Origin: Escherichia coli
GTDB lineage: Bacteria > Pseudomonadota > Gammaproteobacteria > Enterobacterales > Enterobacteriaceae
Strand: one strand, 5' to 3'
Length of the DNA stretch: 368 nucleotides
NCBI RefSeq assembly: GCF_003334335.1
Contig: NZ_QOWQ01000201.1
Shown in pieces: positions 1 to 368 of this stretch. Both the position numbers and the translations under genes were made by a program. The stretch's first letter is position 1; every line of letters begins with the position of its first letter. The notes beneath the pieces were generated by a model. The model did no database searches. It saw only the letters and a list, made by a program, of their open reading frames with translations, and had not been told where the DNA came from.

Positions 1-368
1 GCCCTGGGGATAACGGCAAAACAGATTGCTGATGCCACAGGAAAGAAAAACATGGTGTCGCACTGGTTCAGTGCCAGCCAGTGGCAGCTACCGGACGAAA
101 GCGATTATCTGAAATTACAGGCGCTGTTTGCCCGGGTGGCAGAAGAGAAGCATCAGCGCGGAGAACTGGAAAAGCCACATCACCAACTGGTCAGCACATA
201 CAGTGAACTGAACCGGCAGTATACGGAACTGCAGAGTGAATATAAGCATCTGCGGCGGTATTTTGGTGTGACGGTGCAGGTGCCGTACACCGATGTGTGG
301 ACGCATAAACCGGTGCAGTACTATCCCGGGAAACATCCGTGCGAAAAACCGGCAGAAATGCTGCAGCA
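1..368 (+). CDS. DNA methyltransferase (N6-adenine/N4-cytosine, N6_N4_Mtase-like), internal fragment truncated at both window edges
   Basis: Seen in sequence: frame +1 (codons starting at nt 1) translates without any stop across all 122 codons: ALGITAKQIADATGKKNMVSHWFSASQWQLPDESDYLKLQALFARVAEEKHQRGELEKPHHQLVSTYSELNRQYTELQSEYKHLRRYFGVTVQVPYTDVWTHKPVQYYPGKHPCEKPAEMLQ. Codon use is strongly biased (9 of 11 Leu codons are CTG; CCG, GCG and CAG are frequent), as expected for a real enterobacterial-type gene. Established knowledge: 'H-P-x-x-K-P-x-x-L' (here HPCEKPAEML, nt 334..363) is the conserved block that precedes the FxGSG AdoMet-binding motif I in beta-class amino-methyltransferases. Inference: the DPPY catalytic motif lies upstream and motif I downstream of the window. 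The missing ORF-track entry for this frame fits an ORF that has no stop inside the window. Confidence 0.8.

Follow-up and report, generated by a model that had tools for sequence, protein, structure and literature searches.

What kind of methyltransferase gene does a 368-nucleotide (nt) stretch of Escherichia coli contig NZ_QOWQ01000201.1 belong to, and what does the enzyme do for the element that carries it? A sequence-only reading of this stretch, the whole of which we call the window, had proposed a beta-class amino-methyltransferase with an inserted helix-turn-helix (HTH) or helical module. It suggested a solitary enzyme borne by a prophage or a conjugative plasmid and left room for membership in a restriction-modification (R-M) pair or for something new. 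In this study, we consider the best explanation of the locus, and a highly probable one, to be a solitary N6-adenine methyltransferase of the beta class that belongs to the M.EcoGII family, is carried by a prophage, would be expressed late and would methylate adenine without sequence specificity against restriction.

Family and architecture of the encoded protein

Frame +1 is open across all 368 nt of the window, and the other five frames contain short open reading frames (ORFs) only. The window matches positions 1206377-1206744 of the E. coli JE86-ST05 chromosome (NZ_AP022815.1) at 100%, inside the coding sequence (CDS) of WP_137466585.1, a gene of 1059 nt and 352 codons that RefSeq annotates as 'DNA-methyltransferase'. 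The window is the middle third of this prophage gene, with 513 nt of coding sequence before it and another 175 nt after it up to the end of the last sense codon. With the residue number taken as 171 plus the window codon i, the window encodes residues 172-293 of the 352-amino-acid (aa) protein.

Of the 110 close homologues that were aligned, the protein is the one nearest to M.EcoGII, to which it is identical at 330 of 349 positions (~95%) when compared with the sequence given in the supplement of the SUPREM paper (PMC11551740). That reference is machine-read supplement text with probable small reading errors, and because five of the differences are common to two independent alleles and look like such errors, the true identity should lie between 94.5 and 96%. 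The protein is also 96% identical to the methyltransferase of phage 1720a-02 (AGR48369.1), a phage that the characterisation paper of M.EcoGII named as the carrier of a very similar methyltransferase (Murray et al., Nucleic Acids Res 2018, PMC5778455). Judged by this kinship, the gene is an allele of the M.EcoGII family that is already known and annotated in RefSeq, and the suggestion of something new does not hold against ~95% identity to a characterised non-specific adenine methyltransferase.

According to its characterisation, M.EcoGII methylates adenine in any sequence, is borne by a prophage, is unexpressed in the lysogen and harms the cell when it is forced on (PMC5778455). M.EcoGI, identical to M.EcoGII at 333 of 349 positions, is reported to be non-specific (PMC4659465). 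Published listings class M.EcoGI and homologues at 92-99% as non-specific, and in other pathogenic E. coli they are described as silent or not transcribed (PMC6602927, PMC4659465).

The full protein matches Pfam PF01555 (N6_N4_Mtase) over residues 29-340 (1e-42) and has the Rossmann fold known from members with solved structures. Its motifs follow the beta-class order, with DPPY at residues 35-38, an insert at approximately 135-259 and FMGSG at 310-314, and on this order the full gene is a beta-class amino-methyltransferase, as had been proposed. The class cannot be read from the window alone because neither DPPY nor FMGSG falls inside it; the window holds only the insert and HPCEKP. With an alignment of 81 homologues as input, an AlphaFold2 model (average pLDDT 94, pTM 0.89) places helices at residues 147-158, 160-173, 177-184, 190-194, 204-223 and 238-255, and predicts an HTH four-helix-bundle recognition domain tied to the core by a charged two-helix linker. 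The recognition domain matches cI/Cro proteins, and Pfam sees the HTH weakly (HTH_3, E 0.061, residues 167-195); together with the modelled helices, these matches bear out the inserted module. The same anatomy, obtained here independently, is that of the published AlphaFold2 model of M.EcoGII, which has a Rossmann core at 1-134 and 260-349, an HTH four-helix bundle at 160-237 and a charged two-helix linker (PMC11551740).

Conservation follows these parts. In the recognition domain, LP at residues 201-202 and Y207 are conserved; in the re-entering catalytic core, PYTDVW is conserved at nt 283-300 (D269, W271). HPCEKP lies at nt 334-351, with H283, K287 and P288 invariant or nearly so in the 81 homologues, and HPxxKP is aligned to M.BceJIV in the PDB alignments. 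The features of the window and of its surroundings are collected in Table 1.

Table 1. Features of the window and of the surrounding prophage. Positions without a label are nt of the window; labels beginning with L denote loci of this analysis.
Feature	Position	Strand	Basis or remark
Internal methyltransferase CDS fragment, codons 172-293 plus 2 nt	1..368	+	Open frame, 100% match in JE86-ST05
Inserted target-recognition domain (most of it), predicted four-helix bundle with Cro/cI-like HTH	1..198	+	Residues 172-237 of domain 160-237
Predicted recognition-domain helices	1-6 (end of helix 160-173), 16-39 (177-184), 55-69 (190-194), 97-156 (204-223)	+	
Returning linker helix, residues 238-259	199..264	+	AlphaFold2 helix 238-255; tandem heptads at the homologous position in distant relatives
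Linker heptad array	199-264 (degenerate); L006 1941-2060; viral loci L008-L098		
Return to the Rossmann catalytic core (C-terminal half), residues 260-293	265..368	+	PF01555 alignment, conserved columns, PDB alignments
Promoter-like site overlapping the end of Q, with two GC-rich hairpins with T-runs before the methyltransferase start	L001 18913-19341		
Hairpins between Q and the methyltransferase	L001 18996-19010 and 19324-19341		
65-aa ORF WP_000917749.1, phrog_331	L001 19140-19337, ~660-860 nt upstream of the window		Conserved, travels with the methyltransferase, between the two hairpins
Three phage tRNAs, anticodons CAT, TCG and TCT	L001 20587-20838, from ~220 nt downstream of the window		Directly 3' of the gene

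Other contents of the window were considered and rejected. An RNA element or a repeat was ruled out: an Rfam scan gave no match inside the window and matched the neighbouring tRNAs only, the RNA folding of the window is not stronger than that of shuffled sequences (z-score -1.44), and the repeat scans returned just a weak direct repeat (17 nt, two copies) and a 10-nt repeat present twice, neither of them meaningful. A 73-aa ORF on the minus strand (nt 115-336) was taken to be a by-product of the coding strand, the homology support for the plus frame being overwhelming. The sequence CTGCAG (PstI/M.EcoGIII) occurs twice, at nt 229-234 and 361-366, against an expectation of 0.21, and two sites were found in 3 of 200 shuffles. 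The 40-kb prophage stretch as a whole is not significantly enriched in the site (17 sites against 11.7 expected; 9 of 100 shuffles). Because both sites of the window come from Leu-Gln codons, the pair is probably due to chance.

Prophage location, expression and selection

In JE86-ST05 the gene belongs to a lambdoid prophage that is inserted next to yccA; the stretch examined spans 40 kb. The prophage begins with an integrase, an exonuclease, dicB, the repressor region, replication genes, hokD, rusA and Q; after Q follow two terminator-like hairpins flanking a 65-aa ORF, the methyltransferase, three tRNAs, a TerB-family gene and a nanS-p-type esterase; and the last part comprises a holin, a lysozyme, a terminase and lambda-like head and tail genes. 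The Stx2a phage Stx2_14040 has the same block of Q, ORF, methylase and tRNAs, followed directly by stx2A and stx2B, and phage 1720a-02 has the same arrangement, with the slot just upstream of stx2. Because of this prophage context, downstream of Q and upstream of tRNAs and lysis genes, the solitary and phage-borne nature that the sequence-only reading had suspected is settled. It had also pointed to the flanks as the place to look for a partner nuclease. These contain phage genes, and the annotation of the 40 kb surrounding the gene includes no restriction endonuclease; the surroundings are not those of a conventional R-M operon in a chromosomal core. Similarly, none is annotated beside the gene in phages 1720a-02 and Stx2_14040 or in the plasmid-borne prophage copies.

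The gene is ordinary and occurs very commonly in prophages of E. coli. Of 5426 complete E. coli genomes, 1908 (about one third) contain a match to the window, in up to five copies per genome, and 2594 of the 2603 places are chromosomal and 9 are on plasmids. Comparison with phage records yielded 37 matches, mostly Stx2 phages. The six matches among PLSDB plasmids are all typed as non-mobilizable, and the two PLSDB copies examined are a lambdoid prophage segment and a truncated copy flanked by insertion sequences on an IncY plasmid. Of the two vehicles that had been proposed, the prophage therefore stands and the conjugative plasmid does not. A conjugative-plasmid leading-region methylase is ruled out by these plasmid counts and types and by the PRK13699 score given below. 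The exact window sequence recurs on several E. coli chromosomes, and JE86-ST05 itself has a second copy elsewhere in its genome. On the non-mobilizable IncY plasmid, pHX138.261ft_1, a shortened methyltransferase of 891 nt (L004 5656-6546) lies among IS1, IS5 and IS200/IS605 and looks like a piece of prophage that was transposed.

The region between Q and the methyltransferase was aligned for four carriers that differ in their Q allele. Next to Q the sequence varies with the allele, the stems of both hairpins are conserved while their loops differ, and everything downstream of the first hairpin forms a conserved module. The allele-specificity next to Q is consistent with a late promoter and a Q-utilisation site matched to their Q protein, and the two hairpins with T-runs fit terminators. 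We infer from this arrangement that the methyltransferase belongs to the Q-dependent late transcript, a placement that would explain the silence reported in lysogens.

The gene is under purifying selection. The ratio of nonsynonymous to synonymous substitution rates (dN/dS) is 0.11-0.14 for the whole gene and 0.14-0.23 for the part in the window, and the ORFs are intact in all carriers examined. For linker residues 238-259 the ratio is 1.15, from 5 substitutions in 22 codons; because the substitutions are too few, this value cannot be read as positive selection, and that possibility was dropped.

Several neighbouring features deserve mention. The 65-aa ORF has weak winged-helix matches only (best TrmB, E 0.0046), and in phage Stx2_14040 it is interrupted by a stop codon. 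It could encode a small regulator or simply be part of the late leader. The first of the three tRNAs is tRNA-Ile in RefSeq but Met according to ARAGORN, a discrepancy that a lysidine-modified CAT anticodon would be expected to produce. Several other prophage genes (DUF4752, ead/Ea22-like, DUF551 and YdfR; L001 13209-15750 and 25023-25364) are frameshifted or truncated; therefore, the host prophage may be partly defective, with the methyltransferase still intact.

Proposed function and rival explanations

By analogy with M.EcoGII, the enzyme would work as a homodimer. Its Rossmann core, with the catalytic DPPY and the FxGxG motif for S-adenosylmethionine, would flip out an adenine and methylate it, and the HTH four-helix bundle and the charged helical linker, the parts found in the window, would grip the nucleic acid. 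We propose that they do so by contacts with the backbone rather than by reading bases, and that adenines would therefore be methylated in any context. As a late-operon gene downstream of the late promoter region and of two terminator-like hairpins, the methyltransferase would be transcribed only when Q antiterminates after induction. The replicating phage DNA would then be heavily methylated before packaging, and the progeny would escape the many restriction systems that have adenine in their sites. Silence in the lysogen would avoid toxic methylation of the host chromosome. The benefit against restriction is the proposal of the M.EcoGII authors (PMC5778455), and a later review also favours protection from restriction. 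We consider late expression and action against restriction to be the most likely behaviour of the enzyme, and we infer both non-specific adenine methylation by the window allele and the resulting benefit.

Several points weigh against this explanation. The activity of the allele itself is deduced from homologues, and its exact identity to M.EcoGII is uncertain within the range given above. Seven clear differences from M.EcoGII fall inside the window (S191P, D203N, A212S, Q244K, T246M, Q249L and H254N), all of them in the recognition domain or the linker. The case for Q-dependent transcription is made from consensus scans and gene position only. In the literature on M.EcoGII, lambdoid phages and restriction, of which our coverage is incomplete, we found no experiment showing hypermethylated or protected virions.

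The position of those seven differences is also a reason to ask whether the HTH reads a defined motif, with substitutions that restore or alter specificity relative to M.EcoGII. The recognition domain is a classical Cro/cI-like HTH, and its predicted fold is reportedly shared by the site-specific M.PflMI (PMC11551740). However, the identity to M.EcoGII is ~95%, M.EcoGI is similarly diverged from M.EcoGII and is reported to be non-specific, homologues at 92-93% similarity are listed as non-specific (PMC6602927), and the charged linker that separates M.EcoGII from M.PflMI is present here; therefore, we regard a sequence-specific solitary enzyme as improbable. The main role of the enzyme might instead be something other than protection, such as methylation of host DNA or RNA during takeover, tuning of late, stx or tRNA expression, or the marking of phage DNA for replication or packaging. 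M.EcoGII is reported to methylate DNA, RNA and DNA:RNA hybrids in vitro, its forced expression harms the host (PMC5778455), and three phage tRNAs directly follow the gene, with stx2AB coming after them in Stx phages, in the same putative late transcript. Nevertheless, the two published opinions cited above favour restriction protection. Moreover, the activity on RNA is much weaker than that on DNA and appears to vary neutrally among reconstructed ancestors. We consider a main role of this kind unlikely.

Names alone could suggest the modification half of an R-M system, since the best PADLOC model is a generic 'Type II methyltransferase' (3.4e-164) and RefSeq calls some copies 'site-specific DNA-methyltransferase'. 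Membership in a Type II system implies an adjacent cognate endonuclease, and the neighbours here are Q, the 65-aa ORF and the tRNAs. Nor does a nuclease accompany a distant member of the family on a viral contig, where the gene lies between nin-like genes and a terminase. With no endonuclease annotated around the gene or beside its phage and plasmid copies, this explanation is scarcely credible. It is nearly as hard to maintain that the gene has lost its activity and is decaying as what is left of a defective prophage. The frameshifted and truncated genes of the host prophage would fit such decay, as would the truncated methyltransferase copies, which include the one on the IncY plasmid and many short database entries. 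However, the copy in the window is full length with every conserved motif intact, its exact sequence is shared by several genomes, and decay is argued against because the ORFs are intact and dN/dS is low.

The anti-restriction methyltransferase that we favour is thus a phage-borne solitary gene directly upstream of a tRNA or stx slot, and neither a plasmid anti-restriction gene nor half of an R-M pair, which is the useful outcome of this analysis. M.EcoGII, the founder of the family, is a commercial enzyme widely used in chromatin-accessibility mapping. The role of M.EcoGII-type enzymes in phage spread is a matter of deduction, and this locus and its relatives in Stx phages offer a convenient place to study it.

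The linker and comparison with known systems

The linker of the window contains the degenerate heptads LNRQYTE/LQSEYKH/LRRYF (nt 208-264), which retain only a Y/L a-d seam (Y238, L241, Y245, L248, Y252 and L255) and end in a nearly invariant RR-x-F (R256, R257 and F259). In distant relatives (35-45% identical), the homologous segment consists of 2-6 tandem copies of LRREYED or close variants (EYEDLRR register) and ends in a conserved LRRPF; in one metagenomic relative, it is a DNA tandem repeat of 21 nt (5.7 copies, 98% matches). When two heptads were written as a degenerate DNA pattern, 91 viral contigs matched it, among them the one with the nin-like genes mentioned above, and wherever the ORF was complete it encoded this methyltransferase family. 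The repeat in these contigs always lies between DPPY and HPxxKP, ends ~25 residues before HPxxKP and has 2-5 copies. Relatives with flanks that are 85-92% identical often differ in copy number (for example, 5 vs 2), and adjacent units are 96% identical in DNA. In the enterobacterial clade, the linker has a fixed length without insertions or deletions.

The papers on the structure and engineering of M.EcoGII that we consulted mention a charged flexible linker and do not describe this heptad repeat, although our coverage of the wider literature is incomplete. One could speculate that the linker of the window is what remains, in degenerate form and at a fixed length, of a coiled-coil heptad array that is able to expand by 21-nt units and acts as a ruler tuning target choice or processivity, an idea that we regard as doubtful. 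It presupposes that linker length determines the span, or the dimer arrangement, between HTH domain and catalytic pocket; the fixed length in the enterobacterial clade might then be connected with the lack of specificity of M.EcoGII-type enzymes. The repeat-built linker of the distant relatives is a small lead on how a recognition domain is coupled to a catalytic core.

Among known systems, M.EcoGII from a prophage of E. coli O104:H4 C227-11 has in common with the window protein the beta-class motif order, the HTH four-helix bundle, the charged helical linker and the prophage location. Apart from the seven substitutions, the two differ in length and tail, the window protein having 352 aa and ending in DLVSQNG, whereas M.EcoGII has 349 aa and ends in DLIV. 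The enzyme of phage 1720a-02 is equally long and is likewise encoded in the slot after Q, but its gene precedes an (engineered) stx2 locus, whereas that of the window precedes tRNAs, the TerB-family gene and the nanS-p esterase. M.EcoGI, M.EcoMV and the 1720a-02 enzyme are different alleles from different prophages. The site-specific beta-class M.PflMI, according to its published description, shares the overall predicted fold, including the HTH recognition domain, but is only ~27% identical to M.EcoGII, is sequence-specific and does not have the charged helical linker found here (PMC11551740).

The PF01555 catalytic core is also common to YhdJ (PRK11524) and to the plasmid leading-region methyltransferases of single-stranded DNA (M.EcoGIX/PRK13699). 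For M.EcoGIX, relaxed specificity and an anti-restriction role have been described, as in our reading of the M.EcoGII family (PMC4659465 and a later review). The protein nevertheless scores far below the PRK13699 cut-off (78.2 vs 244 bits), and the match to this profile of 226 positions skips the central insert. The scores for the YhdJ model PRK11524 (113 vs 292 bits) and the CcrM model NF050803 (70.6 vs 830 bits) are likewise below their cut-offs. As a functional analogue, the Mom protein of phage Mu fits by description, since it modifies phage DNA, is silent in lysogens, is toxic if forced on and is made at induction against restriction. Mom is an unrelated protein with an unrelated chemistry, an acetamido modification of adenine.
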